Assembly (NCBI GenBank): GCA_965662895.1
Contig: CBFIJH010000002.1
Span: 1-64,000 of the forward strand
DNA length: 64,000 nt
Direction: 5' to 3'
Origin: Candidatus Poseidoniaceae archaeon
Lineage (GTDB): Archaea > Thermoplasmatota > Poseidoniia > Poseidoniales > Poseidoniaceae
This document shows, in pieces, positions 36,651 through 54,844 of the stretch. The notes beneath the pieces were generated by a model that saw only the letters and a list, made by a program, of their open reading frames with translations, was not told the origin of the DNA and did not search any database. The number at the start of each line of letters is the position of its first letter. Positions within the stretch are counted from its first letter, which is position 1. The position numbers were made by a program, and so were the translations under genes.

Positions 36651-37334
36651 TCACTCAATGGCTTCAAGATGAATCCATTCGTTTTCAAGAGCATGATGCC
36701 AAAGATCTGCTAATCTCATCAAATTGTATGCAGAACGTTCAAACCTTCGAGCAATAAGATTGAGATTCAAACGTCCTTCTCGACCTGCTACGTTTGATTT
36801 CTGTTCTTCAAGTATGGACAGTGAGATCTCTTCGAAAAGGGACTGAATCGACAACCACTGGTCCTTGAGGCCACTTGGCAATTCGGTTAGCTGTAAGAGA
36901 CAAACTTCCAATTGTTCGAGAATGGCGAAAACGCCCAATCCAAGATCCGTGAGTGACCTAGCCAGATGTTCAGGAATTTCCGCACCATCACTCGACGCAT
37001 TGAATGAATCTTGAGCGTTGGCAATATCACGCGCATGACGAGCGAGGCGTTCAATCACATCAATTCCTCGAAGATAACAGGCTACGATTCTCAAGTCCTG
37101 AAGCAGGGGCTGGTTTAGTGTGAGAACCAACAGCAATTCCTGAGATAAATCTTCAGCTTTTCGCTGCGCCTTCATTCTCTTCTTTTGAACAACTTGAGCG
37201 TCAAGCTCTGTTACGTTCGTGATCCCTTTGATTGTCATGGTGTATGCTTGCTTCACGGGTCGGATGAATTCCTCCAAAGCACTGCGGATGATATTCATTC
37301 GAGCATCAAGATTCGTACGGATAGGTGGTGCCAT
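36651..37334 (-). CDS. PhoU-family phosphate transport regulator
   Basis: QPLLQDLRIV...IERLARHARDIA and RRFERSA, a degenerate PhoU repeat pair; adjacent to the pst genes. Confidence 0.85.
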   Translation of the reverse strand: MAPPIRTNLDARMNIIRSALEEFIRPVKQAYTMTIKGITNVTELDAQVVQKKRMKAQRKAEDLSQELLLVLTLNQPLLQDLRIVACYLRGIDVIERLARHARDIANAQDSFNASSDGAEIPEHLARSLTDLGLGVFAILEQLEVCLLQLTELPSGLKDQWLSIQSLFEEISLSILEEQKSNVAGREGRLNLNLIARRFERSAYNLMRLADLWHHALENEWIHLEAIE

Positions 37335-38386
37335 CAAAACACCCCATCGTTTGATTCCATTAAATTCGTTCGCTCTGCCATCATCATATTGATGAGCGTC
37401 TCTGTTAAATCGATACTGTAGCCACACAGTCTACGGACGGTTTCTGAAATCTTGAATTCAACGAGAACAATTCGCGCTCCGTCTTTCGATGACATGAGCT
37501 CTTCCTCATGCGTCTCTAAATCCAACAATTGATCTTTCAGACGCTGCTTTTCCTCGACAAGGACGGACATTTCCTTTGAGTAGGTATTTCGAATAACTGA
37601 GCGCAGGGCAGACAGCCACACTGGAATCGAAGTCATCGGTAGCGTATCCAGAGAAACAGAGACCTCACCGCTGGTTTCGAAGACCAATTTTGCAAAGCGG
37701 TATGCGTGATCGCCCATTCGTTCAAGATAATGTGACATGGCTGCGTGCTGCATGGCTTGGTATCGATCGACCCCAAGAGCACGTTCAATGTGAGGTGAAT
37801 TGAGGGCCATGGCAACCTGACGATCCACGAGTAGACGACGAGCATCAATTTGCCGTTCTCGGTCTTCATGATCGCTGAGTTCTTCAACGTCCTCTCCGGA
37901 AAGAACCCCATAGGAGTCCTCGACCAGGCTGGTCACGAGAAGATACATTCTGTTGAGGCTGACTTGTAGAGGCAGCTCATTCGGATTGAGAAGCGAGACG
38001 ATTGTTATGGAATTGTCCTCATCAAGAGAAATTTCCATCCCTCGGGTGTCACGCAAGAATTGTCGAATGATTCTACGCTCCTTGCTTCCAACCCCAGTTT
38101 TGTCGCGTATCGTTATGTGGTCTGCTCCGCTCACGTAAATTCCAATCAGATAATCGTAAAGAGCTCCGCGTGGGTATTTGGTTAAATCCAAATCGATGCT
38201 GCGCCGAAGGTTTTTGTTTTCCTTTGGAGAGATTTGAATTTCTCCGGAGGATAAATGTTCGATTCCAACGACATCACTTGGTTTCAGATTGTTCTCCGTA
38301 ATCCAGCGTTTCGGTAAGGAAACGATGTACGTCGAACCGCCTGTAACCTGTAGTTTTCTATATTCGACGCCAATGGAAGATTTCAT
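37334..38386 (-). CDS. AbrB-PhoU archaeal phosphate uptake regulator
   Basis: N-terminal RKLQVTGGSTYIVSLPKRW (AbrB-like DNA-binding domain) followed by PhoU repeats (LERMGDHA). Confidence 0.92.
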   Translation of the reverse strand: MKSSIGVEYRKLQVTGGSTYIVSLPKRWITENNLKPSDVVGIEHLSSGEIQISPKENKNLRRSIDLDLTKYPRGALYDYLIGIYVSGADHITIRDKTGVGSKERRIIRQFLRDTRGMEISLDEDNSITIVSLLNPNELPLQVSLNRMYLLVTSLVEDSYGVLSGEDVEELSDHEDRERQIDARRLLVDRQVAMALNSPHIERALGVDRYQAMQHAAMSHYLERMGDHAYRFAKLVFETSGEVSVSLDTLPMTSIPVWLSALRSVIRNTYSKEMSVLVEEKQRLKDQLLDLETHEEELMSSKDGARIVLVEFKISETVRRLCGYSIDLTETLINMMMAERTNLMESNDGVF

Positions 38387-38399
38387 ATTTCTGCCCCTG

Positions 38400-38486
38400 T
38401 ATAGGAAGTCCTACATTCTACCTTCTAACATCAATTTGTATATAGTTATCTATAGGCATATGTAGTTGAATGTAGGTTCCGTAGGC
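38400..38486. promoter_or_regulatory. Divergent phoU/pstS promoter region with 10-bp-phased T(A/G)TAG repeats and a 9-bp inverted repeat
   Basis: TATAG at 38441 and 38451, TGTAG at 38461 and 38471; CCTACATTC (38410-38418) pairs with GAATGTAGG (38468-38476). Confidence 0.65.
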
Positions 38487-38530
38487 CAATGACAATTAGA
38501 GAAACAATCAGCGAGGGTCGGGAAGAGAAT

Positions 38531-41500
38531 ATGTTATCCCTCGATACGAAGAAAAAAGCAATAGCCCTTATTGCCCTTATGATGGTTTCAGCACTAGCTG
38601 GTTGTCTTGGCAATGACGATGACGATACGGATGACTCATCGGATTCGAACAACAATAACGACAATACCAACAACACAACAACTGTTGATGATAATACCGG
38701 TATTGATGTCGGAACGGTGACTTGTGGACCAGATGGTTCCATCAAGATCGCAGGTTCCTCGACGGTATTGCCTCTTGCAGAAATCTGGGCAGAATACTAC
38801 CAAGAGAACTGTGAAGGCGTCACCATCACCGTCGAAAGCGGCGGATCCGGTGGCGGTGCTGGCCGAGTATGTGCCAACTCCGCTAAGGGTACACCTGTCG
38901 ACATTGGTGACATGTCCCGTGACTGGAAAGACACAGAGGCAACACGTGGTGACGATGGTTACACAATGGACTGTCTCGCAGGCGACACTTCTCGCTCCGC
39001 TCGACAAATCCAGGTTGCTATCGATGGATTGTCCGTTGTCATGAAGAAGGGCGGTGCTGCTGACACTTGTGTCAACACACACCTCGGCGGGCTCACTGTC
39101 GATCAACTCCGCTGGATGTTCTCCGCAGAAGCTGACACAGGCTACACACCTGCCAACGATGACGGAGATGCAGTCAAAGAATGGTCCGACCTCGACGCAG
39201 ACTGCGGTGCGGCAGAAATCGTTCTTGCATACCCTGACGCTGACTCTGGTACCTACGAGTACTTCTACGAAACTGTCCTCGATGAGGCTGAAGAAGGATT
39301 CCGATCCGGTACACAGTCCGCTGACGACAACGTTCTCGTCAACACACTGATCGGTGATGAAACCTCGATTGGTTACTTCGGATACGCATACTACCAAGAG
39401 AACATGGCAACCCTCGCTGCTGCTGCAGTCGAGAACAGTGCCGGAAACATGGTTGCTCCAACCTCCACAAGTGTCGGTGACGGAACCTACAACCCACTTT
39501 CCCGCCCATTGTTCATGAATCTCCTCAACGACGAAGATTCCCTCGAGAACACCGTCCCATTCCTCGAATTTGGACTTGGTGACGGAGGCGACCTCCTCGT
39601 TGCTGAAGTAGGATACGTAGCACTCCCTGACTCCCTTGACACTGTCATGGCCAGTCGTCTGGCTGGAGGCGTAGGTGCTTCATTCTGTGGACCAGATGGT
39701 TCCATCTCCATTGCGGGATCCTCCACTGTTCTACCACTTGCCGAAGCATGGGCAGAAGACTACCAAAATGCGTGTGATGGAGTTACCATCACCGTCGAAA
39801 GCGGTGGATCTGGTGGCGGTGCTGGCCGAGTCTGTGCCAACTCCGCTAAGGGTACACCTGTCGACATTGGTGACATGTCCCGTGACTGGAAGAGCACAGA
39901 AGCTGACCGACAGGCAAACGGATTCATCCTCGACTGTCTCGCTGGCGACACATCTCGTGACGCTGCTCAAATCCAGGTTGCTATCGACGGATTGTCCGTT
40001 GTTATGAAGAAGGGTGGCGCTGCTGACACTTGTGTTAACACACACCTCGGCGGACTCACTGTCCACCAACTCCGTTGGATCTTCTCCGCTGAAACCGATG
40101 CTGAACTCGTAGGTGCAGGTTTGGACCTCGGAACTGAAATTGGAAACGATGACGGTGACACAACCCGAGAATGGTCTGACCTCAACGCAAACTGTGGAGA
40201 TGCTGAAATCGTTCTTGCATACCCAGACGCTGACTCTGGTACATACGAGTACTTCTATGAAACAGCACTCGATGAGGCATCTGCAGGATTCCGTGCAGGT
40301 ACACAATCCGCTGACGACAACGTTCTCGTCAACGCTCTAACCGGCGATGAGACCGCTATCGGATACTTCGGATACGCATACTACCAAGAGAACATGGCAA
40401 CACTCGCTGCTGCTGCTATCGAGAACAGTGATGGTAACATGATCACTCCAAACGCCAACAGCGTTCGTGATGGATCCTACAACCCACTCTCTCGACCGCT
40501 CTTCATGAATCTCCTCGTCGATGGTGCAACTCTCGAGAACACCATCCCATTCATGCTCTATGGATTGGACACCGAGGCTGGAAGTCAAGCTGTTGCAGAA
40601 GTTGGATATGTTTCACTGAACGATTACCAAAAGCACCAGATGGTCTTTGGCCGACTCGCTCACCTCCAAGGGTTCACAACAGAAGGCAACGACCACATCT
40701 TCGAAGACATGTGTGCCGCAGCAGGAAGCATCTCCATTGCTGGTTCGTCAACTGTTCTACCACTTGCTGAAGCATGGGCAGAAGATTACCAAGAAATCTG
40801 TGGTGACACATCCATCACCGTCGAAAGCGGTGGATCTGGTGCTGGTGCTGGCCGAGTTTGTGCCAACTCCGCGAAGGGTACACCTGTCGACATTGGTGAC
40901 ATGTCCCGAGACTGGAAGAGCACAGAAGGTAGCGTTGACGCAAACGGACAACTCAACTGTCTTGTCGGTGACACATCCATTACCGTAACACAACTTGTTG
41001 TTGCAGTCGACGGATTGTCGGTTGTCTCCAAGAAGGGCGGTGCTGCTGACGTTTGTATGCAAAACATGGGCGGTATGACCGCTGCTCAACTCCGATGGGT
41101 CTTCTCTGCTGAGACAGACACTGAGTTGACCGCAGCTGGCCTCGTTCTCTCCAGTGTTGTCCCTAATGATGACGGAGACGGGGTCAAGGAATGGTCCGAT
41201 CTCAGCGCAAACTGTGGCTCAAATGCAATTGTTCTCGCATACCCTGATGCAGACTCTGGAACATACGAGTACTTCTACGAAGAAATCCTCCACGAGGCTG
41301 CTGCTGGATTCGGAACCGGTACACAATCGTCTGATGACAACGTATTGGTCAACGCAATCCTCGGTGATGAGCATGCAATTGGATACTTCGGATACGCATA
41401 CTACCAAGAGAACATGGCAACACTCGGTGCTGTTGCTGTCTCCAACAACCATACACATGGTGTTGCAGACGCTCCTGAAGACGCTGTGGCCCCAACACCA

Positions 41501-41716
41501 CAGACTGTTCGAGACGGAAGCTACGCACCGTTGTCCCGACCGTTGTTCATGAACGTGAACAACGATGCTTGGGACAAAGTCAGCCCATTCCTCCAGTGGG
41601 CGTTCTCTGGGGACGGTAGCGCTGTCATCTCAGAGGTCGGTTACGTACCTCTGGATGACGCCACGTACCAAGAGATGATTCGACGTATCCTCGCAGAGGG
41701 CGTCTACGCTGCTTGA
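38531..41716 (+). CDS. pstS: Phosphate-binding lipoprotein with three tandem PstS domains
   Basis: Lipobox LAGC; three copies each of IAGSSTVLP, ESGGSG.G, DIGDMSR, A(I/V)DGLSVV, DSGTYEYF, IGYFGYAYY and Y.PLSRPLF. Confidence 0.93.
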   Translation: MLSLDTKKKAIALIALMMVSALAGCLGNDDDDTDDSSDSNNNNDNTNNTTTVDDNTGIDVGTVTCGPDGSIKIAGSSTVLPLAEIWAEYYQENCEGVTITVESGGSGGGAGRVCANSAKGTPVDIGDMSRDWKDTEATRGDDGYTMDCLAGDTSRSARQIQVAIDGLSVVMKKGGAADTCVNTHLGGLTVDQLRWMFSAEADTGYTPANDDGDAVKEWSDLDADCGAAEIVLAYPDADSGTYEYFYETVLDEAEEGFRSGTQSADDNVLVNTLIGDETSIGYFGYAYYQENMATLAAAAVENSAGNMVAPTSTSVGDGTYNPLSRPLFMNLLNDEDSLENTVPFLEFGLGDGGDLLVAEVGYVALPDSLDTVMASRLAGGVGASFCGPDGSISIAGSSTVLPLAEAWAEDYQNACDGVTITVESGGSGGGAGRVCANSAKGTPVDIGDMSRDWKSTEADRQANGFILDCLAGDTSRDAAQIQVAIDGLSVVMKKGGAADTCVNTHLGGLTVHQLRWIFSAETDAELVGAGLDLGTEIGNDDGDTTREWSDLNANCGDAEIVLAYPDADSGTYEYFYETALDEASAGFRAGTQSADDNVLVNALTGDETAIGYFGYAYYQENMATLAAAAIENSDGNMITPNANSVRDGSYNPLSRPLFMNLLVDGATLENTIPFMLYGLDTEAGSQAVAEVGYVSLNDYQKHQMVFGRLAHLQGFTTEGNDHIFEDMCAAAGSISIAGSSTVLPLAEAWAEDYQEICGDTSITVESGGSGAGAGRVCANSAKGTPVDIGDMSRDWKSTEGSVDANGQLNCLVGDTSITVTQLVVAVDGLSVVSKKGGAADVCMQNMGGMTAAQLRWVFSAETDTELTAAGLVLSSVVPNDDGDGVKEWSDLSANCGSNAIVLAYPDADSGTYEYFYEEILHEAAAGFGTGTQSSDDNVLVNAILGDEHAIGYFGYAYYQENMATLGAVAVSNNHTHGVADAPEDAVAPTPQTVRDGSYAPLSRPLFMNVNNDAWDKVSPFLQWAFSGDGSAVISEVGYVPLDDATYQEMIRRILAEGVYAA
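38722..41690 (+). repeat. Three ~1-kb internal direct repeats (PstS domains)
   Basis: Units start near 38722, 39686 and 40712; long identical nucleotide stretches are shared between units. Confidence 0.9.
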
Positions 41717-41770
41717 TTAAGTAAGCAAAGGCGATCGTCGTAACCACTAGGAACAATTCCTGGTGTGGCC

Positions 41771-41811
41771 GAGGGGCTGGATACTCCGGTATCCAGTCCC
41801 TCTTTTTTTTT
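41771..41811 (+). terminator. Intrinsic terminator-like hairpin with U-tract after pstS
   Basis: GAGGGGCTGGATAC-TCCG-GTATCCAGTCCCTC: 14-bp stem with one G-U pair and a cUCCGg loop, followed by T9. Confidence 0.85.
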
Positions 41812-41897
41812 ATTTCAATATTCATAGACATATATAGATTATTTAGTGTGAAGCAATGTCCAATCCCGATTAGGCGGCATCAAGGCCGTGGTCGATT

Positions 41898-44339
41898 ATG
41901 CGAATACGAGCCCGAATCGAAGAAGGCGCCCCCGGGTTGGTGCTCTTCGCCCTCGCTGCAACCGTTGTTATGATTACATCGGGAATTGTCTACGTACTGT
42001 TCGACAATGGTTCGAAATTCTATCGTGGCTTCGCTTGTGGCGCAGATGACTTCAAACCTCCACAAGATTGGGATGAAGATCTCAAAGCCAGCATCAAAGA
42101 CGCTGCGAACTATTCCGACGGTTCCATATCAGACCCGCTCTGGTTGAATTCGTTGTGCATTACAGAGTTCGATATGGATCACGAAGTCGTATTGGCTGAT
42201 CCATTGATTGATCGTTTCCAATGGGACGTTGATGCGAAATCCTATCCTGAAGGAGACGATCGTGAAGCTTCGGTGTTCACGCTGGAAGATGGGACAGAAA
42301 TACGTGGGCCGCGAGTCGATGAAGGGCGGCCATATCTAACCGATTATTTCACTCAAAATCCAGACAAATGGGATTCTGAATATCCTACGATCCCTCTCGG
42401 CGTTATTTCTGCCAATGAGAAAGCCCTCATTCTCCACACTCAGAACCCTGACCTGGCCCGTGAGTGGTGGGTCACAATATGGATTGGAGATGATGATGTA
42501 CGCATTGACATGGAAAACTTCTCCCTCGGACTGACCGAGTATTCCATGGGAGCCGTGTACAAAGAAGGTGATTTTGCCCGAGTTGAAGTTGATACCTATT
42601 GTGGGTTTGAAGAAGAGAACCAGGAATCGCTGAACACGATGCTTACAGATGCTGGAATTGAGGTTGTCGACGATTGTTTCACACTTGAGAACCACCTCTA
42701 CCCAAACATCCACGCTCAAGCATCTTCGGATGGGCTGGATGTTGAAACTGAATACCTCGCTTACAAAGCAAATGGATTCCATAAACCAGAGATTGGTGAT
42801 GAGCTGGGCAATGGTTCAACCGCATGGAACCTTGTTGGAGATGCAGACCTCCCGTACGATTACGATCAAGACGGCGTATGGAACACCAAATCCGACGGAC
42901 AAGGTGGCCTTGCAGACAACGATATCGATGGGGATGGAATTGCCAACAAAGTCGACCATGATATGGACAACGATGGCATTCCGAACGCGTATGATAGCGA
43001 CCCGGTGCTTCCTAACGTTGACTGGGTTGGTATTCTTTTGGCATTGCTTACGCTCGGTGTTGTTGCTGGCGCTTATCTGAGTCCGCAGTGGCTGCCCAAA
43101 CTCAGCATAGAAACCATCGATGCAACCATCCCCACCCTCAAGAGCGTAGCCTATCTTGTTGTCTTGATTGGTTTCATGTCGCTTATCAGTCCACCAAGCG
43201 GTATACTCCTGATGACACTGCTTGCTTTGATGGTTATTCTCACGGTTTTGATTCGCCGTATCGATGGAGGGTATCCCATGCCTCTCATCGCAATCGGCCT
43301 TACTTCGCTCTTCTTCGCACTCTTCTCCATCCACAAAATTCAAACAGGCCATACCATCTTCCTTGGCGGAGCGATGATCTTCATGTCCAACGTCATCAGC
43401 GATACCAGAAACCAAGCGGGCGTCGAACGAACGGCAATTATGGAGGGCGATTCTCGTTCATTGATGACACTCATCATTCTCGTTACGTTCATGCTTTGCT
43501 ACTTTGATTTCGTCGCCCGAGTAAACGGGTCCCTCGGAGAGTTCCTCACCCAGACATGGTGGAAGACGGACGTTCGTACCGTGAGCGTCGTTACTGTTGG
43601 TGAAGACCTGCACATGGGTGTCAATTCGTTGTTGCAAACGACACTGCAGGTTGCGCTCGGGGCTCTCGTTATCGCTATCCCAATCGGATTGGGAACTGCG
43701 ATTTACCTCTCCGAATACGCAAGCCAACGAACTGCAAACTTTGTCAAACCGATTCTCGAACTGCTTGCTGGTATTCCATCGGTCGTTTACGGATTCTTTG
43801 CTTTCGTGGTTATCGCTCCAATTGTGGTTGATGTCGGAACGTATTTCTTGGAACGTGGCTGGATTGCTGAAGAACCCCAACTGTTCAATCCACTGAGCGG
43901 TGCAATCGTTGTTGGAATTATGATCACACCACTGATCGCTTCCCTTTCTGAGGACGCACTGCGAGCCGTTCCAGACAACCTTCGCCAAGCATCCTACGCA
44001 CTTGGTGCTACGCCTGTTGAGACAACTGCTCGAGTTACCGTTCCATCGGCGCTTTCAGGAATTCTTGCATCGATTATCCTCGCTCTCTCACGAGCGATTG
44101 GGGAAACAATGGCAGTCACATTGTCTGTAGGAACACTCGCCACTTATTCGAACAACATGTTCCGAAGTGCGCAAACAATGACGGCATACATTGCCCAACG
44201 AATCGGTGGCGAACTCCCGATTGGAACAACTCCGTATTACTCACTCTTCGCTGTCGGATTCTATCTCTTCTTTATCACACTAGGGCTGAATCTCATCGGC
44301 CATAGAATCATGACGCGATTCCGGGAGGCGTACGATTGA
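41898..44339 (+). CDS. pstC: Phosphate ABC permease PstC, greatly extended
   Basis: C-terminal core IPIGLGTAIYLSEYA, KPILELLAGIPSVVYG, SEDALRAVP...ASYALGA and SRAIGETMAV; about 340-aa acidic insert and extra TM helices. Confidence 0.92.
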   Translation: MRIRARIEEGAPGLVLFALAATVVMITSGIVYVLFDNGSKFYRGFACGADDFKPPQDWDEDLKASIKDAANYSDGSISDPLWLNSLCITEFDMDHEVVLADPLIDRFQWDVDAKSYPEGDDREASVFTLEDGTEIRGPRVDEGRPYLTDYFTQNPDKWDSEYPTIPLGVISANEKALILHTQNPDLAREWWVTIWIGDDDVRIDMENFSLGLTEYSMGAVYKEGDFARVEVDTYCGFEEENQESLNTMLTDAGIEVVDDCFTLENHLYPNIHAQASSDGLDVETEYLAYKANGFHKPEIGDELGNGSTAWNLVGDADLPYDYDQDGVWNTKSDGQGGLADNDIDGDGIANKVDHDMDNDGIPNAYDSDPVLPNVDWVGILLALLTLGVVAGAYLSPQWLPKLSIETIDATIPTLKSVAYLVVLIGFMSLISPPSGILLMTLLALMVILTVLIRRIDGGYPMPLIAIGLTSLFFALFSIHKIQTGHTIFLGGAMIFMSNVISDTRNQAGVERTAIMEGDSRSLMTLIILVTFMLCYFDFVARVNGSLGEFLTQTWWKTDVRTVSVVTVGEDLHMGVNSLLQTTLQVALGALVIAIPIGLGTAIYLSEYASQRTANFVKPILELLAGIPSVVYGFFAFVVIAPIVVDVGTYFLERGWIAEEPQLFNPLSGAIVVGIMITPLIASLSEDALRAVPDNLRQASYALGATPVETTARVTVPSALSGILASIILALSRAIGETMAVTLSVGTLATYSNNMFRSAQTMTAYIAQRIGGELPIGTTPYYSLFAVGFYLFFITLGLNLIGHRIMTRFREAYD

Positions 44340-47300
44340 CGAAACAAAAAATCGACCTTTCCGACAAAGGGTTGTTTGGAACCTCCTTGTTGCCAAAGCG
44401 CTCATTGAAGCGCCGGTATCTTGCTGCAAAGACTGGCAAGACCGTGTTTGTTGCCATTGCCATAACATGTGGAATCATTCTCGTCACGCTCCTGACGCAA
44501 ATTTCCAGTGAAGCCTTCGTACCAACAGAAGAATTTGAAGTCGAGCGAAGTGAAACGTACTCAGAGAAGGGGACCAATTCCGGCGTGTTTTATCACAAGC
44601 CCGCTGAAACGCAACTTTCCTGGGAAGCTGAGACATGGAATCCAAATTGGGCTGAAGACGACTTACGCCAAGAACGCGAAAACATCACAATACAAGCTTC
44701 ATGGACGGAGCGTCATTTCCAAGCCTACAACGATGCAGGAGATACCTTCGTTCAAAACGGACAAGACACGTGGGATCTTGAAGAGGACCTCGAGCGCGCC
44801 CTGTGCGATGAAGGGGTTGCTAAAACCACCTACAGGCCGGTCGAACCATGGTCGCTCTCCCACCTTTTGCTCATCGGATCTGCCGACGAATACGAATACA
44901 AACTTGGTGAAGATTGGCGAATTACAATCTATTGGAGAGAGACTGCGCCGACGCCAAATCTCGGAAATTACTGGATTCATATTGATGACAACGACACGTC
45001 CGATGTCAGTGATGATGAGATCATCGAGCGATACGTCTGGCGGGGGCTTCGATGGGAAGTTGTTGGTGAAGACGCCTACCTCGACGAGGCAATGGCCCTT
45101 GCCGGCGATGATCAGTCCACATGGGGCGATGGGAAAATCCGACTCATTTACCGTCAAATCCCATGGACAGGATGGCAAAATGGAGATTTGTTGTTCTACA
45201 ATACGGGACAGGGTACACCTGTCGTTGCTGTTAGCCAGAAAAACATGCCAGACATCCCACTTGACGCAATCAACCCCATCCTCCTCAACCCCGCAGAGAA
45301 CATCAAATCCTTCGTACCTGAATTTTGTACAATGGAAGAGACATCAAAATACATTCTCGATGAAGGGCTCACTGGAAGTTACGTGATCGGTGAAGTCACC
45401 AACGACGATGGATACGTCATCGAAGAGTTGGACGATTCGGGACTATCGGTCATTGCTGAACTTACGATTGCGATTTCTGAAACTGGAGAAGGTCATGATG
45501 AATGGGTCATGATTGACAATCGTGGATTCATCAACTACGACCACGATAACGATGGATACGGAAACATGTTCTGGGATTTAGACAGTGACGGCGATGGTGT
45601 CTGTGATTATTACCCCGAAGAAATACCAGGCGGTCCGTTCAAGTGCAGCAAAGCAGATGGTCCACTTACCGAAGATACAAATCAAGACGGTCGAATTGAC
45701 ATCAACGACTACGGCGAAAATCCTGTCGATTACGGCGTCGAAGTCATCGAAGATACGGACTCCATCTATCACACTCGGACAACGGACGCACTGATTTTGA
45801 GTCCATCTCGAAGTTCTGATAATTGGCTGTATATTCTTCATGACCTGAACTATACAGTAACGATTCAACAAAATTCAGGGCCGCCAATGGATGCAAAAGA
45901 ATCCTCCTACCAAGAAATAGGTGGATTCGCCCTTGGAAGCCCAGTCGATTGGTTCCAGCCAAAATTCATCGGCGATGATGACTTTGACAACGATGGTACC
46001 ATTGATGTCTGTGATGATGATATCGACCAAGATGGAGACAGCAACCCAGTCTATGGTGACGCAGAGAAGTGCCCTGATGCGTACGAATGGATTGAACAGA
46101 AAAATTCCACCCTCGATGCTCTACGTGGGCAGTTGGAATCCATCGATACAAACACTGATGAGTATACAAGAATCTCGGATTTGATCAGTGAAATCGAAGA
46201 TTCAGATTTCGCACTCTTTGTCCATCTTCACGACGAAAACGGAGACGGCGTCCACGATGATGCAAAAGATCGTGATATCGATGGTGATGGTGTTCCCAAC
46301 CTCATCGATGGCCAGGGGACATGGGCAGGACGCTCAATGACTTCTCCATTTTCCGCAGAAGAACAAGAGGCAATCAACCTCTATGTCGAGGAACTCAAAG
46401 AAACCAAGTGCAGTGACACCTACAAGAAAAGCAGCCTGGAGTATGCATCAAAGGATTGCAGTAATGCAAAGGAATTGAACAATTCAAAACCAACAACGCC
46501 TCAGCAATTCTGTGATGGGATTCGTACCCTCAACCAACAGGATTGGTTGATCAGTTGCGCAGCACCCATCAATCATGAATCTGGAGAAGAAATCCTGGAA
46601 CATCGAAACCCTTGGTTACCACTCACTGCTATGATCGGGCTTGTTGGAATGATTGCCATTATGAGGACACCAGAATGGGCCATTCAGAAACTGCGCAACG
46701 GAATGATTTGGATTGGAACCAAAGAAGTTGAATCTGAGAAGTTCACCATGTATTCCTGGTTTTCATACACAAGCGAATTCACAAATCGTTTGATCAGTGT
46801 TCTCCTACGCCTGATTTTCACAGTCATAGGCGGATTGATTTTCTTCTCAACGTTCTCGGATTCTCAACCTGTTCTTCTCGTTCCATTCACCTTCATTATC
46901 GGAGGCGCAGTCACTCTGATGGCGTCAATTGCCCTCGTTTCTGCGGTAATGGACATCGTCCGTTTGAGACCTGAGAAAGTCATTCCAAAAGCAGAGGGTG
47001 TCGTCGATGTTATACTACTGGGCGCTACATTACTTACATGGTACATCGCCATCACATGGGCTCTCGTTGAAGGGTGGATTGTTGGCGGAATCCTCCTTCT
47101 GTTCATTCTTTCAGGTGTTAAGAAACTCGTTCTTGGTGCCTTGCAATTGACGCGTTCAAACACGTTCAAGGACGACCGTCTTCGGCTCGTCGTAAAAGGA
47201 AGAGATGGTTGGCTGATGGCGGCATTTGTCATCCTTGTTATCGCCTTCATTTCCATACCAATAAGCATCCATATCCCATTCATTTGGTCAGATTTTACTT

Positions 47301-48163
47301 CTTCTGAGCCATACAAAGCAGGTTTGCGTGCTGCATTCTGGGGAAGCGTCTATGTGGTGACCTACACGATGCTGTTTGCCATTCCATTATCGCTTGGAGC
47401 TGCAATCTGGCTCGAAGAATACGCACCAAACAACCGATTCCGAAGGGCAATTCAGGCACTTATCACCAATCTTGCAGGTGTACCTGCAATCGTTTTCGGT
47501 CTGTTTGGCCTTGCCCTTTTCCTCACCGATCGGGGAATCGGACTGGGGCTCGGAGGCACAGTCCTGACTGCAGGAATGACCATGGCAACAATGGCCATGC
47601 CAACCATCGTCATCTCATCACAAGAAGCCCTGCGTGCCGTTCCGCCATCGCTTCGTAACGCTGCATTCGGCTTAGGATGTACGAAGTGGCAAGTGACCAA
47701 AGATCACGTTCTACCGCACGCCATGCCTGGAATGATGACGGGAACCATTCTCGCCATGTCAAGAATCATGGGTGAAGCAGCTCCATTGATTCTTGTCGGG
47801 GCTGTTGCGTCTGTCTTTACCGAACCAGATGCGTTCTTCTACATCTCCTACGACTTTGCTCCGAACTTTGATTATCTCTTTGCATGGATTCCTGGCGTTG
47901 AACCATACTTGCAAAACCTTCCGTTCTGGGCAGATCGTGAATTGTTCTCCGCAGATCCAAGTGCATACACTGGTGCCGATACAAACGACCGTGGAGCGTA
48001 CACTGTTCTCCCAGTACAGGTTTATCGATGGACAGACATGCCTGCTACAGGATTCAAGGTTGCAGCAGCAGGAGCGTCCATCGTCCTCCTCGGTACGCTG
48101 CTTGTCGTCAATTCTGCTGCCATTCTTCTCCGTGCTCACTTCAGGAGGTATTCGAACACATGA
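44336..48163 (+). CDS. pstA: Phosphate ABC permease PstA, greatly extended
   Basis: Core [34 protein letters not shown]...AAFGLG and [10 protein letters not shown]; about 700-aa acidic insert; TTG start overlaps the pstC stop. Confidence 0.92.
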
Positions 48164-49332
48164 CGAACAAATCAGATAAAAAAATGCTAACAGTCGGTGA
48201 CTTGTTCACCATGATGAACAAACTTGTTGAAGTGGATGGTGTCGTCGGCGAAGACGGGTTGGTGCACATCGAGACCATCAAGAAAGATCTCGGAAGTGAA
48301 GACGATGAAATCTCCTCAGGCGAAGCGATGAGCATTCTCACTTCTCTCGCTGCTTCAGACTCGGATGAAAGCGATGAAGAGATGCTTGCTATACGCGAGA
48401 TGATCGATTCATATTTTCAAGAATCAAATGCTGAAGAAGAGGAATCCGATGAACCCAACAAAGTCGCCGAAGAGAGTGACGAACAAGAAGAAGATAATAC
48501 GGAAGAGGAGGAAGCAGAAGACGCCGCATCGCCCGAAGAGGACATTCCAGACTCAACACGTAACCTTGACATTGGCGGCGATGCCCACATGTGGATTCAT
48601 GATTTGGATTTGCATTATGGAAATGCACAGGCCATCTACAACGTATCAATTCCGTTTGAACGAAATGCTGTTACAGCATTGATTGGGCCATCAGGTTGCG
48701 GGAAATCGACGCTGCTTCGTTGTCTCAATCGAATGAATGACCTCATTTCAATTTGCAAGATCGACGGGAAAATTGAACTCGAAGATGACAACATCATGAC
48801 CCGTGGTGCCGATTTGGTGACAATTCGTCGACGCGTTGGAATGGTTTTCCAAAAGCCAAACCCATTCCCGAAGTCCATCTACGACAATGTTGCATACGGC
48901 GTTCGATTGCACTACAATCCAAGCCGTCGAGAATTGGACCGCATTGTCGAAAGTGCTCTGCGAAGAGCAGCTTTGTGGGATGAAGTCAGCGATCGACTTC
49001 ACGAACTCGGGACAAGTCTCTCGGGTGGCCAACAGCAACGACTTTGCATCGCCCGAACAATTGCAGTTGAACCTGAAGTCATTCTTATGGACGAACCATG
49101 CTCAGCACTCGATCCAATTGCAACGGCAAAAATCGAAGAATTGATTCTCGAATTGAAGAAACACTTCACAGTTGTAATTGTCACACACTCGATGTCTCAA
49201 GCGCAACGTGTTAGTGACTACACGGCGTTCATGTACCTCGGTCGACTGGTTGAATTCGATAAAACCCCAGTCATTTTTGGTGATCCGAACATGGAATTGA
49301 CACGTCGATACATTTCTGGTCGTTTCGGTTGA
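48160..49332 (+). CDS. pstB: Phosphate ABC ATPase PstB with a ~140-aa N-terminal extension
   Basis: [53 protein letters not shown] and YISGRFG; AGGAGG upstream and ATGA overlap with pstA. Confidence 0.96.
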
Positions 49333-49422
49333 TGCAACAGAATCATCAACAGCCAATGCTTGATGGTTCAATGAAAGTGTTGTTCCATTAAAGGGCAAAG
49401 AAGATGTATCTCGTGCTCAAGA

Positions 49423-50184
49423 GTGGCCACTATGAAGATGAAGGCGATTCTCGTTGCGGGGGGCAAAGGCTCTCGCCTTTATCCCTTTACAAGGTACACC
49501 CAAAAGACGCTGTTACCACTCTACAATCGACCAGTCATCGATTACGCTCTTGGGACAATTCGGCGTGGTGGGATTACTCGAATCACCATCATTTCCAACG
49601 AACACATCGGCCACATTGCAAAACACGTCGGCCAAAGTATGGAAGGTGAGCAAATCCATTACGTCCTCGAAGAAGAACCACAAGGCGTAGCCCAAGCTTT
49701 GCAACTTGCTCGACCTCACAATGAAAACAGCCGATTGATGATCTACTTTTCAGACAACATTACCACCGTTGAATTTGATGAAATTATTCAAGAGTTTAAG
49801 CAAGCAGAACATCCTCCTGGCTGCCTCCTGCTTGCACGAGAAGAAGAGCATCCCCAAGCCTTCGGTGTTGCTGTCCTCGATGAGAATGGAGATATTGTCG
49901 ATGTGGTGGAAAAACCGAAAAATCCACCATCAAATCTTGCAATTGGTGGCATTTACCTCTTTGATGAAACCTTTTGGGACAAACTTGATGATGCAGTCGA
50001 GAAGAAAGGTGATGACTTCTCAATATCTGATATCAATCGGGCATACATTGCTGAAGGAAAGGCAAACTTTGTTTCCGTAGGTGCTGAAACATGGGTCGAT
50101 TGTGGTACGCCTGAAACCCTGCTTCAAGCGAGTATTATGGCGAAAGACGGGAAACTTAACCCGCACCCGTATCGTGAAAGGTGA
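49423..50184 (+). CDS. Sugar-phosphate nucleotidyltransferase (RmlA-like)
   Basis: [16 protein letters not shown]...K.LLP, EKP and WVDCGT. Confidence 0.9.
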
Positions 50185-50188
50185 TTGG

Positions 50189-51013
50189 ATGAAGATTGGA
50201 ATAATTGGGGCAGGAATGGTTGGTGGAGCAATTGAGCATTGCTTTGAACATGCGCACGAACTTTTCGTGCACGATCCTGTGCGTGGAACAGACCTATCCA
50301 TCGTAACAGACAACGTCGATTTTGCTTACATCGCCGTGCCGACCCCTCCGCATCCAGAGACAGGGGCATGCGATACACGCATTGTTGAAGCGACGCTTGA
50401 TGCCTTACCAGATGGATTTACAGCTGTCATCAAAAGTACTGTAGTACCAGGCACGACACAACGCTATCACGAGGAATATCCAAATCTAAAAATTGCATAT
50501 TCCCCTGAATTTTTGGTTGAACGTCAACGATTGGAGGATTTTGCAAATCAAGACATCCTTGTTTGTGGTACGCATCATGCGGATGTTGCAGAGCGCGTCT
50601 TTGAACAACATCGACAAGCAGGTGTGCTTCGCAGAAACCAGACATTTCAAGTTACTCCGACACAGGCTGAATTGGTCAAATACACCAAGAACACATTTTA
50701 TGCAATGAAGGTCACATTCGCAAACCAACTCTACGATATATGCGAAGGATTGGGCGAAGATTGGTACAAGATTCGTGAAATTATTACGGCTGAACAGGCA
50801 CAACCAATTGGGCCCTCTCACCTCGATCCTATCTTTGGATTGAATCGGGGTTTTGGAGGAAAATGCTTGCCGAAAGATTCCTTAGCATTGGGCGTTCTTG
50901 CCGAACAACTTGGTGTAAAGTATGAATGGATGGATGCCATGCAAAACGACAACAATCGTTTGCGTTCCATTTTAACTGGGAAACCAAGCGATGTGGTCAC
51001 CAATGACGACTGA
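50189..51013 (+). CDS. UDP-glucose/GDP-mannose dehydrogenase family protein, short form
   Basis: [33 protein letters not shown] and [10 protein letters not shown]; 274 aa. Confidence 0.88.
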
Positions 51014-51458
51014 TTTCCAAGCACTTCATGGACGGTTTGCCCCCCGCGGATCGTTGGGTCGATTTGCGCTTGCTGGGTGCTTCAACAGCATCGTGTTCTA
51101 CATTACATGGACGTCATCAATGGCTCTTCTTCCGGAAGCCGATGTGCGAATTCTTTGGGGGACTTTCTGGGGCTTAACTGGCCTCATGGGCCATTTTGTT
51201 CATCGTTTGTATACATTCGACAATCACAAATCACTTGCATGGACCCTCCCTGCTGCAGTCCCTGTTTACGTTGGTAGTCTCGTTGGATCGAGTATGACCA
51301 TTGGCTGGTTGTCTGAGCGCTATCCAACGCAGATTGAGTGGCTTGGCATACCAAACATGGTGTGCTGGGGAATTCTCATTTGGTTGTCGATGAGGATTTT
51401 TGTCTTCCAATTCTCACCATCTACACCGCATGCGTCTCAAGAAGATCGAACGGTATAA
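51003..51458 (+). CDS. GtrA-like 4-TM protein
   Basis: [18 protein letters not shown] and C-terminal RIFVF, matching the GtrA pattern. Confidence 0.7.
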
Positions 51459-52834: not shown

Positions 52835-54844
52835 TTGAATACCCACTGGTTGGGGCGGACTATGCAAAACGGAGTTAGCGGCTGGTATGCAAGATTAGAT
52901 CGATGCTTGAACAACAGACAAACACAAATCGAAATGTGGCTTGATGCATGGGAACAGTCGCTTCGAAATCACCAGCCTATTGCAGCCCTTTTGCCAGAAG
53001 ACTGGCCAACACTCCCAGCAAATCTCTTGACCGATCCTGGTCATGTCCTTGACCATCTGCTTGCTCGCCATGATGCAGAGTCGGATGGTCGCTCTCCACG
53101 TGGAGCGCATCCTACTCCTCCTCGCCTTGCAGATTCAATCATCTCTTCTGAAATGCTTGAGGCGACCATTCAGCCAAAAGTCAAGAAGCAAACAACAAAC
53201 ATGCATCTTGCCGATCTCCCCCCAGGCTTTCAAAAACACATCAAGAAACTCAATTTCCCCCCAAGTGAAGAAGAGGTGACACTTGATGAAGACGCAATCG
53301 AAGCAGTCCGTCGTAACGAGCGGACAAGTAGTGGAATCCCTCTCCCATTTTCTGACATGTCTTGTGGCGGTGGAATCTTCCATGCCCGCATGCTCCGTAA
53401 GCACAGTGAGATGTTTGAGGAACAGGACCCCGAACTTCGCAAAGAGGATACAGAACGGCTCTTCCGTGGTTTTCAACTCGTTGATGTTGATGATTTGGTT
53501 GTTCGATCAACCCGAAGGCGATTGCTTTTGGAAGCCATTAAACTCGACCTCGTTGCACTAAGCGGAGAGCAAGAAGGAAAACTCACACGGGGAGTTGTTG
53601 AAGACATTTTGGAACAAAACATCGTTTGTTCTGATACACTGCAAGAACTGTGGCCATGGACTGAAGCGCCCCGTCTAATCATCTCAAACCCTCCGTGGCT
53701 TCGAATAAAAGACCGCTTCCGAGGCATGGAAGATGGCTCCCAGCGACGTAAGGAGTTGAGTGAAAAACTTCGAAACCTCTCGAACGAGGATGGTCCTCGT
53801 TTCTCAACCATGCGTGGCAATGTGAACCTCTACCGTCTCTTTATTGAGCGCGGGATGCAAGTCTTATCCGTTGATGGAAATATGCGGATTGTCGCTCCTG
53901 ACAGCCTCCTGAGAGAACAATCCTCGCATCCGCTCCGCAAACTCCTCGTGGAAAAGCACTCTTGGAACGAAGTTTGGGCAATTGAAGAGGCCAACCTTTT
54001 GTTCCCTGGCATGACGCAGGGAGTTGCAATTCTTGGTATTTCATCAACGCCAAATGGGACGGAAGCTCTCAAGATCATCGGGCCTGTGACTCGGTCTGAT
54101 CTTCGTCGTGTAGGCTCAGGCCTTTCCTCTCGTGTTCCATCGTTCATGCTCAACCAAGAGCAATGGGTTCAGTGGGCAAGAAACACGTGGGCAATTCCAC
54201 GATTGCCGCGCGACCAAATCGAACGAAAGAACATTCTCAAGATCCTTGATAGTATGTCTCAACTACCGCGACTTGGAGACCATGACCATTGGCTTGCAAC
54301 CCATGAGCAAACGGTCAAGGTACGAGTCGGTGAAATCGACCAAACTGCTCATTCAACAAACATCTCAAGTTGGGATAAGACAAAGTCGTCTCGGCCGTTC
54401 ATCCGTGGAGTACACTTCACAGAAGATGAAACTGGGAATGTTTACATCCGCCATCCAGCGTTTCGCAAAGATATCCCGTCCCGAGCCAATGAACGACAGC
54501 TTGCAATGTGGTCTGGAAAAACCGAAGTGCAAACCTATGGTCCGCGACTTGCATGTCAAGCAATTGTCAACGCTCATCAGGAACGACGTCTTCGTTGGGC
54601 CGTCATTCCAGAAGGATGCATATTAGGAAACAGTGTAAACCACATCGAGATGAACCAATCCATCTTAAACAGACTCACTGCTACAAAAGGCAATCTACAG
54701 AAGTCGTTGGAATGGATGTGCGAACAACTTAATCAGCGAGATCTTGACGATTGGGCCAAAGCATGGTCAGCGAACAACAACGTCAACAACTACGAACTGG
54801 AGATGCTCCCCCTCCAACTTAATGTTGAAGAAGTCGTTAATTGA
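52835..54844 (+). CDS. N6-adenine DNA methyltransferase, Eco57I/TaqI-like (gamma order)
   Basis: GAHPTP (motif X-like), DMSCGGGIF (motif I), SNPPW (motif IV), NLYRLFIER and P.SLL; TRD-like C-terminus. Confidence 0.8.
   Translation: MNTHWLGRTMQNGVSGWYARLDRCLNNRQTQIEMWLDAWEQSLRNHQPIAALLPEDWPTLPANLLTDPGHVLDHLLARHDAESDGRSPRGAHPTPPRLADSIISSEMLEATIQPKVKKQTTNMHLADLPPGFQKHIKKLNFPPSEEEVTLDEDAIEAVRRNERTSSGIPLPFSDMSCGGGIFHARMLRKHSEMFEEQDPELRKEDTERLFRGFQLVDVDDLVVRSTRRRLLLEAIKLDLVALSGEQEGKLTRGVVEDILEQNIVCSDTLQELWPWTEAPRLIISNPPWLRIKDRFRGMEDGSQRRKELSEKLRNLSNEDGPRFSTMRGNVNLYRLFIERGMQVLSVDGNMRIVAPDSLLREQSSHPLRKLLVEKHSWNEVWAIEEANLLFPGMTQGVAILGISSTPNGTEALKIIGPVTRSDLRRVGSGLSSRVPSFMLNQEQWVQWARNTWAIPRLPRDQIERKNILKILDSMSQLPRLGDHDHWLATHEQTVKVRVGEIDQTAHSTNISSWDKTKSSRPFIRGVHFTEDETGNVYIRHPAFRKDIPSRANERQLAMWSGKTEVQTYGPRLACQAIVNAHQERRLRWAVIPEGCILGNSVNHIEMNQSILNRLTATKGNLQKSLEWMCEQLNQRDLDDWAKAWSANNNVNNYELEMLPLQLNVEEVVN

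Follow-up and report, generated by a model that had tools for sequence, protein, structure and literature searches.

Gene content of the pst locus

We report that positions 36651-49332 of a 64,000-nucleotide stretch of DNA (the window; contig CBFIJH010000002.1 of GenBank assembly GCA_965662895.1) from a Candidatus Poseidoniaceae archaeon hold an enlarged phosphate-specific transport (Pst) system, in which two PhoU-type genes are divergent from pstS-pstC-pstA-pstB (open reading frames, ORFs, positioned as in the initial annotation; Table 1). The models of the canonical subunits are 295, 296, 272 and 248 positions long, so the usual Pst subunits are far smaller, and those encoded in the window reach 2-4 times the usual size. 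As judged from the sequence, the system is very probably a functional, lineage-specific enlarged high-affinity phosphate ATP-binding cassette (ABC) importer PstSCAB of the Poseidoniales (Marine Group II archaea).

PstC, PstA and PstB each score above the NCBIfam equivalog cut-off, and the matches are confined to residues 524-808 of 813 in PstC (TIGR02138), residues 962-1270 of 1275 in PstA (TIGR00974) and the last 247 residues of PstB (TIGR00972); PstS as a whole protein obtains 479.8 bits on TIGR02136, for which the cut-off is 206.6. EAA-type loops can be read in the translations of PstC and PstA, and in that of PstB the Walker A, LSGGQ and Walker B (ILMDE) motifs together with an H-loop. The initial annotation had described two divergent phoU-family genes, subunits of about 1060, 813, 1275 and 390 amino acids (aa) and intact core transport motifs. 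The ORFs and the PhoU domain matches agree on the first point, we find 1061 (from an alternative ATG), 813, 1275 and 390 aa, and the cut-offs passed together with the motifs read bear out the third.

With regard to gene starts, the alternative ATG of pstS at 38531, which gives the 1061-aa protein, agrees with the N-termini of relatives. The pstA gene starts with TTG, overlapping the pstC stop, and an identical 4-base overlap is present in relatives; the long pstB ORF begins at 48028 inside pstA, while a start at the ATG of position 48160, sharing bases with the stop of pstA (ATGA), gives the 390-aa protein.

The product of the first phoU-like gene matches PF01895 (PhoU; E=1.4e-5) and TIGR02135 (E=6.1e-9, under its cut-off), and its orthologues (225-234 aa) adjoin the giant operons described below. 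The second combines an AbrB/MazE domain (PF04014, E=1.9e-10, residues 13-57) with PhoU (PF01895, E=4.3e-11, residues 144-235); this fusion gene is kept beside the operon in relatives, and its product is the likely regulator.

Table 1. Features of the enlarged pst locus (coordinates in the window; residues are those of the respective protein)
Feature	Coordinates	Strand	Details
phoU-like gene 1	36651..37334	-	likely ATG 37334, 227 aa; listed ORF extends to 37427
AbrB/MazE-PhoU fusion gene	37334..38386	-	350 aa; directed away from pstS
pstS	38489..41716	+	1075 aa from first ATG; TIGR02136 479.8 bits, 3 stretches
PstS domain 1	38723..39682	+	aa 79-398; TIGR02136 153.7 bits, model positions 40-294 of 295
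PstS domain 2	39683..40663	+	aa 399-725; TIGR02136 160.6 bits, model positions 40-294 of 295
PstS domain 3	40694..41713	+	aa 736-1075; TIGR02136 173.3 bits, model positions 39-295 of 295
pstC	41898..44339	+	813 aa; TIGR02138 245.8 bits (cut-off 196.45)
PstC extra N-terminal membrane helix	41934..41990	+	aa 13-31; hydropathy 2.33; AlphaFold2 helix 2-45
PstC predicted outside domain	41991..43025	+	aa 32-376 (about 345 aa), acidic
PstC DxDxDG calcium-type repeats	42858..42995	+	aa 321-366; motifs at 321, 340 and 355
PstC block of about 5 extra membrane helices	43026..43457	+	aa 377-520; hydropathy, AlphaFold2
PstC six-helix core with EAA loop	43458..44336	+	aa 521-813; TIGR02138, PF00528
pstA	44336..48163	+	1275 aa; TIGR00974 210.6 bits (cut-off 193.45)
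PstA extra N-terminal membrane helix	44441..44497	+	aa 36-54; hydropathy 2.51; preceded by Lys/Arg-rich stretch
PstA predicted outside domain	44498..46630	+	aa 55-765 (about 710 aa), acidic
PstA, two probable units of repeat common to phage-tail-like repeat proteins	44897..45292	+	aa 188-319; hhalign
PstA lineage-specific extra DxDxDG repeats	45539..45610	+	aa 402-425, within insert at about aa 395-485
PstA invariant DxDxDG block 1	45980..46048	+	aa 549-571
PstA invariant DxDxDG block 2	46232..46303	+	aa 633-656
PstA block of about 5 extra membrane helices	46631..47200	+	aa 766-955; AlphaFold2
PstA canonical core	47201..48160	+	aa 956-1275; TIGR00974, PF00528
pstB	48160..49332	+	390 aa; TIGR00972 383.3 bits (cut-off 343.2)
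PstB N-terminal add-on	48160..48588	+	aa 1-143; alignment of orthologous add-ons

The flanking genes, which encode an HflX-type GTPase, a beta-propeller protein, a sugar nucleotidyltransferase and UDP-glucose dehydrogenase, are unrelated to the system. Downstream, a UDP-glucose/GDP-mannose dehydrogenase appears split across two overlapping ORFs (50081-51013 and 50991-51458), the match of the former being limited to part of the NAD-binding domain and the central domain, and a 669-aa ORF at 52835-54844 carries an Eco57I-type restriction-modification methylase domain.

Distribution of giant, medium and small forms

The order was surveyed in 151 sampled genomes, the window's own included, of which 41 have a PstA match. 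Giant PstA was present in 17 of the 151 (13 in family f1 and four in family f3, the two main families), with open frames of 1090-1403 aa and one further frame truncated where its contig ends; 14 genomes had a medium form (open frames 578-676 aa) and seven a small fused PstC-PstA of approximately 623-632 aa, and the form was unclear in three (G125, G120 and G143). The three forms alternate among close relatives, and giant and medium forms were seen together in none of the 151 genomes. Fifteen giant, four medium and one small loci were compared part by part with the window; in the giant loci, where the enlarged parts occur as a set, PstC varies between 693 and 835 aa and PstA between 1158 and 1284 aa, with PhoU-type genes alongside.

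Titled records with giant PstA are named Poseidoniaceae, Poseidonia, Poseidoniales or Marine Group II, and one 'Methanobacteriota archaeon'; a Planctomycetota record gave one weak PstA match, in the DxDxDG region only. The source annotation of a giant homologue reads 'phosphate ABC transporter permease PstA'. In the titled metagenome-assembled genome YZ09aB_8.77 we observed two distinct giant PstA loci (L036 and L038; 44% and 36% identical to the query); either this genome has two systems or the bin is mixed.

The window's own genome is 92% complete, and in it we found no further PstA or PstC match, no PHO4/Pit transporter and no PhoA-type alkaline phosphatase; the giant Pst thus appears to be its only recognisable phosphate permease.

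Outside the order, 151 Thermoplasmatota genomes were sampled and 88 had a PstA match. In five loci that we compared (L041-L045, in G191, G162, G245, G256 and G203) PstC and PstA are fused in a single ORF of 1079-1191 aa, in which an unassigned region of approximately 350 aa precedes the two cores; four of the five also have about four N-terminal helices. The pstB ORF of L041 encodes 578 aa. These different enlarged Pst permeases suggest a wider, undescribed trend in the Thermoplasmatota.

Three binding domains in one PstS

The PstS protein starts with a signal peptide with the lipobox LAGC, followed by an Asp/Asn/Thr-rich linker and three tandem domains. Taken singly, the domains (153.7-173.3 bits) are under the TIGR02136 cut-off, yet each spans the full mature portion of this model (E<=6e-45), in keeping with the triplicated PstS of the initial annotation. 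They are mutually 64-77% identical (77% for domain 2 versus domain 1), and the nearest solved chain to domain 3 is 4jwo_A (E=1.3e-30). The stretches GSSTV, ESGGSGxGAGR, DIGDMSRD and DADSGTYEYF, which we take to be phosphate-ligand stretches of the PstS family, are invariant across all three. At the DNA level pstS is repetitive, with a period of 963-1026 nucleotides (nt) and 72-88% identity.

All 13 giant loci with the pstS region on the contig (window included) encode at least two PstS domains. Their number is three at 10 loci and four in G062; for L016 and L023, two is a lower bound. The four-domain protein (1397 aa; L013:785-4978) belongs to a relative of the same genus, and its extra domain groups with domain 1. 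A tree of PstS domains, in which all 39 rows were kept and L032 has a very long branch, separates the domains of giant systems from the PstS of medium systems (support 99/100) and clusters the three family f3 domains together (100/100), while in family f1 domains 1 and 2 group by lineage. With 15 of its 36 inner branches open, the tree does not resolve the order of the duplications.

Two further observations concern pstS and its relatives. The synonymous divergence (dS) of pstS between the window and L014 and L015 is 0.43-0.69, far below that of the saturated pstC, pstA and pstB in the same genomes, and could reflect codon constraint from high expression or recent pstS exchange. Two other PBP_like_2 proteins are present in the window's genome (G000:C2:123986-124543 and G000:C1:221659-222609; open frames of 289 and 405 aa, respectively).

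Added helices and predicted outside domains of PstC and PstA

The two permeases have a common plan, with a Lys/Arg-rich N-terminus, one hydrophobic helix, an acidic domain, approximately five helices and the six-helix core, that is, about 12 predicted helices per permease compared to six in canonical PstSCAB. In the blocks of added helices AlphaFold2 (AF2) places helices at 376-393, 404-430, 435-456, 461-475 and 480-502 of PstC (predicted local distance difference test, pLDDT, 70-90) and at 760-777, 805-838, 846-875, 885-912 and 915-940 of PstA (pLDDT mostly 70-84); no mutual similarity was detected between these two blocks. The cores are conserved: that of PstC is 74-98% identical across the other giant loci, and that of PstA 69-97% in these and 48% in medium-size systems.

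The loops between the added helices alternate between Lys/Arg-rich and Lys/Arg-poor in both proteins, matching the positive-inside rule, and one helix plus five added helices would keep the N-terminus of the core cytoplasmic. From this, the Lys/Arg-rich N-terminus and the even numbers of cysteines we infer that the large domains of PstC and PstA face the outside of the cell. As claimed initially, then, both permeases combine large acidic, predicted outside domains (net charge -55 for PstC residues 40-380 and -107 for PstA residues 65-760) with extra helices (approximately five plus one each).

In an alignment of 13 PstC the outside domain has two conserved cysteines (Cys47 and Cys87), invariant Asp and Gly columns in the DxDxDG repeats and an insert of about 130 aa (roughly aa 200-320) limited to some lineages. 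Alignments of 14-25 PstA sequences gave eight invariant cysteines (C157, C331, C559, C579, C692, C708, C726 and C741) and two blocks in which D549, D551, D553, G554, D557, C559, D560, D562, D564, D566, N570 and P571 (block 1) and D633, D637, G638, H640, D641, D645, D647, I648, D649, D651 and N655 (block 2) are invariant. An insert at about aa 395-485 is found only in the window's closest relatives, and the AF2 pLDDT is <50 there. In PstC as well as PstA the invariant DxDxDG blocks stand just ahead of the membrane re-entry.

Searching Pfam up to E=10 with the PstC, PstA and PstB additions gave only sub-threshold TSP_3 and noise. Specifically, TSP_3 (PF02412) reached 13.3 bits with the PstC outside domain (gathering score 25) and did not match PstA, and we regard the likeness of the DxDxDG motifs to the thrombospondin type 3 repeat as a resemblance only. 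PDB sequence searches with either outside domain gave no match at E<=1, and an ESM Atlas search with that of PstA no usable match. When the two outside domains were compared with each other, only the DxDxDG repeats aligned (BLASTP E=0.011; hhalign 61%, 36 columns), and since nothing else aligns, a simple duplication was rejected as the origin of the two extensions.

Structure prediction was of limited help. The AF2 model of PstC (13-row alignment) has a mean pLDDT of 52.4 and a predicted template modelling score (pTM) of 0.31, with even the known core <50 and the outside domain confident only at 92-174 and 204-303; for PstA residues 1-1200 (25 rows) the values are 56.4 and 0.37. Shallow alignments are probably the cause. 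Foldseek searches of the models against PDB and BFVD returned no match at E<=0.001; the best ones were meaningless helical matches and short UreE-like or ferredoxin-like ones with E of about 0.35, and we draw nothing from them.

The PstB add-on

The 143 aa ahead of the TIGR00972 region of PstB consist of a helical module of approximately 85 aa with two motifs, followed by an acidic low-complexity linker. Pfam TerB (PF05099) matches seven of eight orthologous add-ons (best E=1.5e-6) and does not match the window's copy. The add-on is long in family f1, whereas in f3 it is short at L025 and L026 (PstB of 288 and 292 aa) and long elsewhere (369 aa, n=2). We infer that it faces the cytoplasm as a TerB-like regulatory or tethering module, and it may work with the two PhoU-type proteins. 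That the ATPase has an N-terminal add-on is upheld. The wider claim, that all four subunits carry extra domains, holds for PstS, PstC and PstA and is weaker for PstB, the add-on of which is short, fast-evolving, partly low-complexity and reduced in two f3 loci.

Assembly, transcription and selection

The extra lengths might in principle be artefacts, that is, assembly chimeras, ORFs fused via missed stops or mis-called starts, and assembly chimerism of the inserts was named at the outset as a finding that would overturn the reading. Among the Logan contigs, one from study P3 (9007 nt) matches 41635-49400 apart from 12 differences, one of 5278 nt from study P4 covers 41937-47214 and three from study P5 tile 41699-49400. 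Since the pstC and pstA junctions are bridged by these contigs, the points where additions meet cores have been assembled independently. Near-identical pstC-pstA sequence, with at least half of the sampled words, is present in 17 runs; the 20 rows that contain it come from nine studies, and four of them may be the source sample. Moreover, apart from a TGA in G067 the giant open frames lack internal stops, a PstS of three domains is present at 10 loci, some only 45-49% identical, and the outside domains are under purifying selection (see below).

What speaks for an artefact comes from pstS, the region of which is broken into many small pieces in the Logan short-word contigs, with one contig (run X12) joining 39117 to 40145 with 37 other letters between. 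This join may reflect a variant in the population that carries a different domain, or repeats that were joined wrongly; of all our results, how many PstS domains a given population has is the least certain. The pstS repeats are, on the other hand, merely 72-88% identical in DNA and hence resolvable by assemblers. Together with the presence of the architecture in 16 other sampled genomes, the contigs spanning pstC-pstA-pstB dispose of the chimera objection, and we consider an artefact extremely improbable.

In RNA library X18 the word depth of pstS is far above that of pstC and pstA, some bins of which have no cover. We read no expression level from this library, in which DNA may be present and the depth adds up contigs from other organisms as well, and the empty bins show nothing. 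Selection was examined by comparing the window with three close orthologues. Nonsynonymous divergence (dN) is 0.02-0.04 in the cores and 0.11-0.14 in the outside domains (0.11-0.19 for outside domains and extra-helix blocks together), synonymous sites being saturated in these added parts; for the PstB add-on it is 0.42-0.46, with dN/dS of 0.23-0.31 where estimable. The outside domains and extra-helix blocks are under purifying selection, weaker than that on the cores.

A possible phage-tail-like repeat in PstA

A profile of the PstA extension (14 sequences) aligned with protein P0036 at an hhalign probability of 96% (E=3.6e-9, 118 columns, PstA 188-319). P0036, P0137 and P0026 match PHROG 'tail protein' families; the window's own PstA segment alone matches no PHROG family at E<=0.001. 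When the profile was searched against 1.84 billion representatives, 923 proteins were found at E<=0.001. Among the best 150 of these, four match the full profile (1163-1275 aa), eight are short fragments and approximately 138 match profile positions of about 171-310 only, often repeatedly per protein; the partial-match proteins consist of the repeat APTxxGxGDxWxDTDD...YxWxGxxW. Going by these matches, the PstA outside domain as such is nearly restricted to this lineage.

Tail proteins are typically binding structures, and the outside domains could be adhesion or capture modules through which the cell, or the transporter itself, attaches to a source of phosphorus (particles, polysaccharide, Ca-phosphate or another one) and takes up phosphate on the spot. 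In addition to the alignment of PstA 188-319, the invariant calcium-type DxDxDG repeats and the strong acidity of the domains fit such a role, and passages of PMC6461757 list thrombospondin-type genes as an adhesion trait of the order. Weighed against this, the Pfam, PDB sequence and ESM Atlas searches found no known carbohydrate-, mineral- or phosphate-binding domain in the outside domains, the window's own segment lacks a PHROG match, and co-occurrence with multi-domain PstS fits a role inside the transporter equally well. Calcium-type repeats are, in addition, simple structural stiffeners in many surface proteins. We regard a role in adhesion or capture as unlikely. Capture of phosphate from Ca-phosphate, particles or mineral surfaces, as first suggested, would at most be compatible with the repeats and the acidity.

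Proposed role of the outside domains

The overall explanation that we favour, at about even confidence, is an enlarged Pst importer in which the outside domains serve as a scaffold for PstS. With their ordinary cores, PstC and PstA would form the pore, driven with ATP by a PstB dimer and supplied with phosphate by PstS, and the lipid anchor would tether PstS, with three binding domains on one chain, to the membrane. More tentatively, and with clearly less than even confidence in this part, both outside domains would build a calcium-stiffened superstructure above the pore that holds or guides the three-headed PstS, by analogy with the P2 loop of MalF, which according to passages of PMC4245157 is the receptor for its binding protein and holds MalE through the transport cycle. 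Several loaded binding domains would thereby be kept beside one pore, which would raise the capture rate at low phosphate; keeping them near the pore would help because an archaeon has no closed periplasm.

A number of points weigh against this proposal. The link between the outside domains and PstS is without direct evidence, and the AF2 models of both permeases were poor and gave no fold match at E<=0.001. Tandem PstS also occurs without giant permeases, in the medium system of G018 (at least two domains) as well as in diatoms and other prokaryotes. A strongly acidic surface would repel phosphate, and the phage-tail-like repeats suggest binding of something other than PstS. As to the PstB add-on, the window's copy lacks a TerB match and has degenerate-looking motifs. 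Finally, the RNA evidence is weak, consisting of a few exact contigs in one possibly DNA-containing library.

A purely architectural role, in which the domains are spacers or anchors that fit the transporter into a surface layer or lift its docking face through it with no handling of substrate, also seems rather improbable to us. Such a role would suit domains that are large, disulfide-paired and equipped with calcium-type repeats directly preceding the membrane re-entry in both permeases, that are unalike save for these repeats, and that tolerate lineage-specific inserts of about 90-130 aa, as for a scaffold. The medium and small Pst of sisters in the same genera lack such domains, however, so the envelope alone does not require them, and a function beyond that of a spacer is suggested by how strong the purifying selection is and by the many non-structural residues that are invariant. 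A more far-reaching alternative would be a new class of ABC importer with receptor-like outside domains, in which a calcium-loaded acidic crown with phage-tail-type binding repeats docks the archaeon or the transporter onto a phosphorus-bearing surface (for instance that of a particle, an alga, a polymer or a Ca-phosphate phase) and passes the phosphate released there to the three tethered PstS heads, so that one machine would both attach and import; we consider it quite improbable.

According to PMC6461757, no planktonic archaea in the surface ocean are more abundant than Marine Group II, which has no cultured member, and their phosphate acquisition is consequently known from genomes only. 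Here the sole recognisable phosphate permease of a genome is built very differently from the textbook Pst, which is surprising for transporter specialists and bears on phosphorus uptake by an abundant uncultured group. If the outside domains handle the binding protein or a surface, as the scaffold proposal and the docking readings respectively would have it, they would represent a new type I ABC importer design in a periplasm-free cell. Moreover, the alternation of giant, medium and small forms provides a natural comparison for the worth of the additions at different phosphate levels.

Comparison with known systems

The initial annotation called the system remodelled and possibly undescribed. 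A remodelled Pst with intact cores it is, and we found no published description of the giant architecture in the literature searched (supplements not covered; that of PMC6461757 may list transporter genes), nor one of the medium Pst or the fused PstC-PstA forms. The enlargement is, however, not unique in kind, as tandem PstS occurs elsewhere and fused PstC-PstA is present in other Thermoplasmatota.

The canonical PstSCAB of the Escherichia coli type shares with the window's system the gene order, a nearby phoU, the core models, the EAA loops, the ATPase motifs and the PstS family. It differs from the present system, which has a three-domain lipid-anchored PstS, about 12 helices per permease, outside domains of 345 and 710 aa, a 143-aa PstB add-on and two PhoU-type genes, one of them fused to AbrB/MazE.

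The closest relatives of the window's system are the medium Pst systems of the Poseidoniales, which are found within the order and even within one genus. In their PstA, a first helix has already been added, followed by about 130 aa of outside sequence and by further helices; PstC has extra helices as well, and PhoU-type genes lie alongside. They differ in size (PstC about 450 aa, PstA 568-589 aa and PstB 271 aa) and in PstS, which has one domain in three of four loci, and their cores are 48-61% identical to those of the window.

N-terminal additions to PstC and PstA are also known in bacteria, where, according to passages of PMC3597751, DUF3708 and DUF3333 stand beside BPD_transp_1 and are prevalent in the Alphaproteobacteria. 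These did not match the window's extensions up to E=10, and the bacterial extensions are much shorter (the DUF3333 profile is 151 positions long); the single hit, to DUF3333, was weak (E=0.0048) and came from G027, which has the small fused form.

Other prokaryotes, as well as diatoms, have proteins of 600-1850 aa in which several PBP_like_2 domains are combined; these were found by PstS similarity alone. The diatom proteins P0213, P0217, P0220, P0221, P0226 and P0231 (from Epithemia, Amphora, Nitzschia and Seminavis) are 740-1274 aa long with several PstS-type domains. A phrase-based literature search found no paper on tandem PstS proteins.

The maltose importer MalFGK2 is, as passages of PMC4245157 describe it, likewise a type I ABC importer in which a permease has a large extra outside domain. 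MalF P2, with a mass of approximately 20 kDa, is inserted between helices 3 and 4, whereas the outside domains of the window are 2-4 times larger, follow the added first helix and are present on both permeases. They have no sequence or fold match to solved structures, and contact with PstS is what we propose by analogy. Finally, GlnPQ reportedly has several binding domains per chain serving one pore, the domains being fused to the permease; the three PstS domains of the window, in contrast, form a separate lipid-anchored protein.

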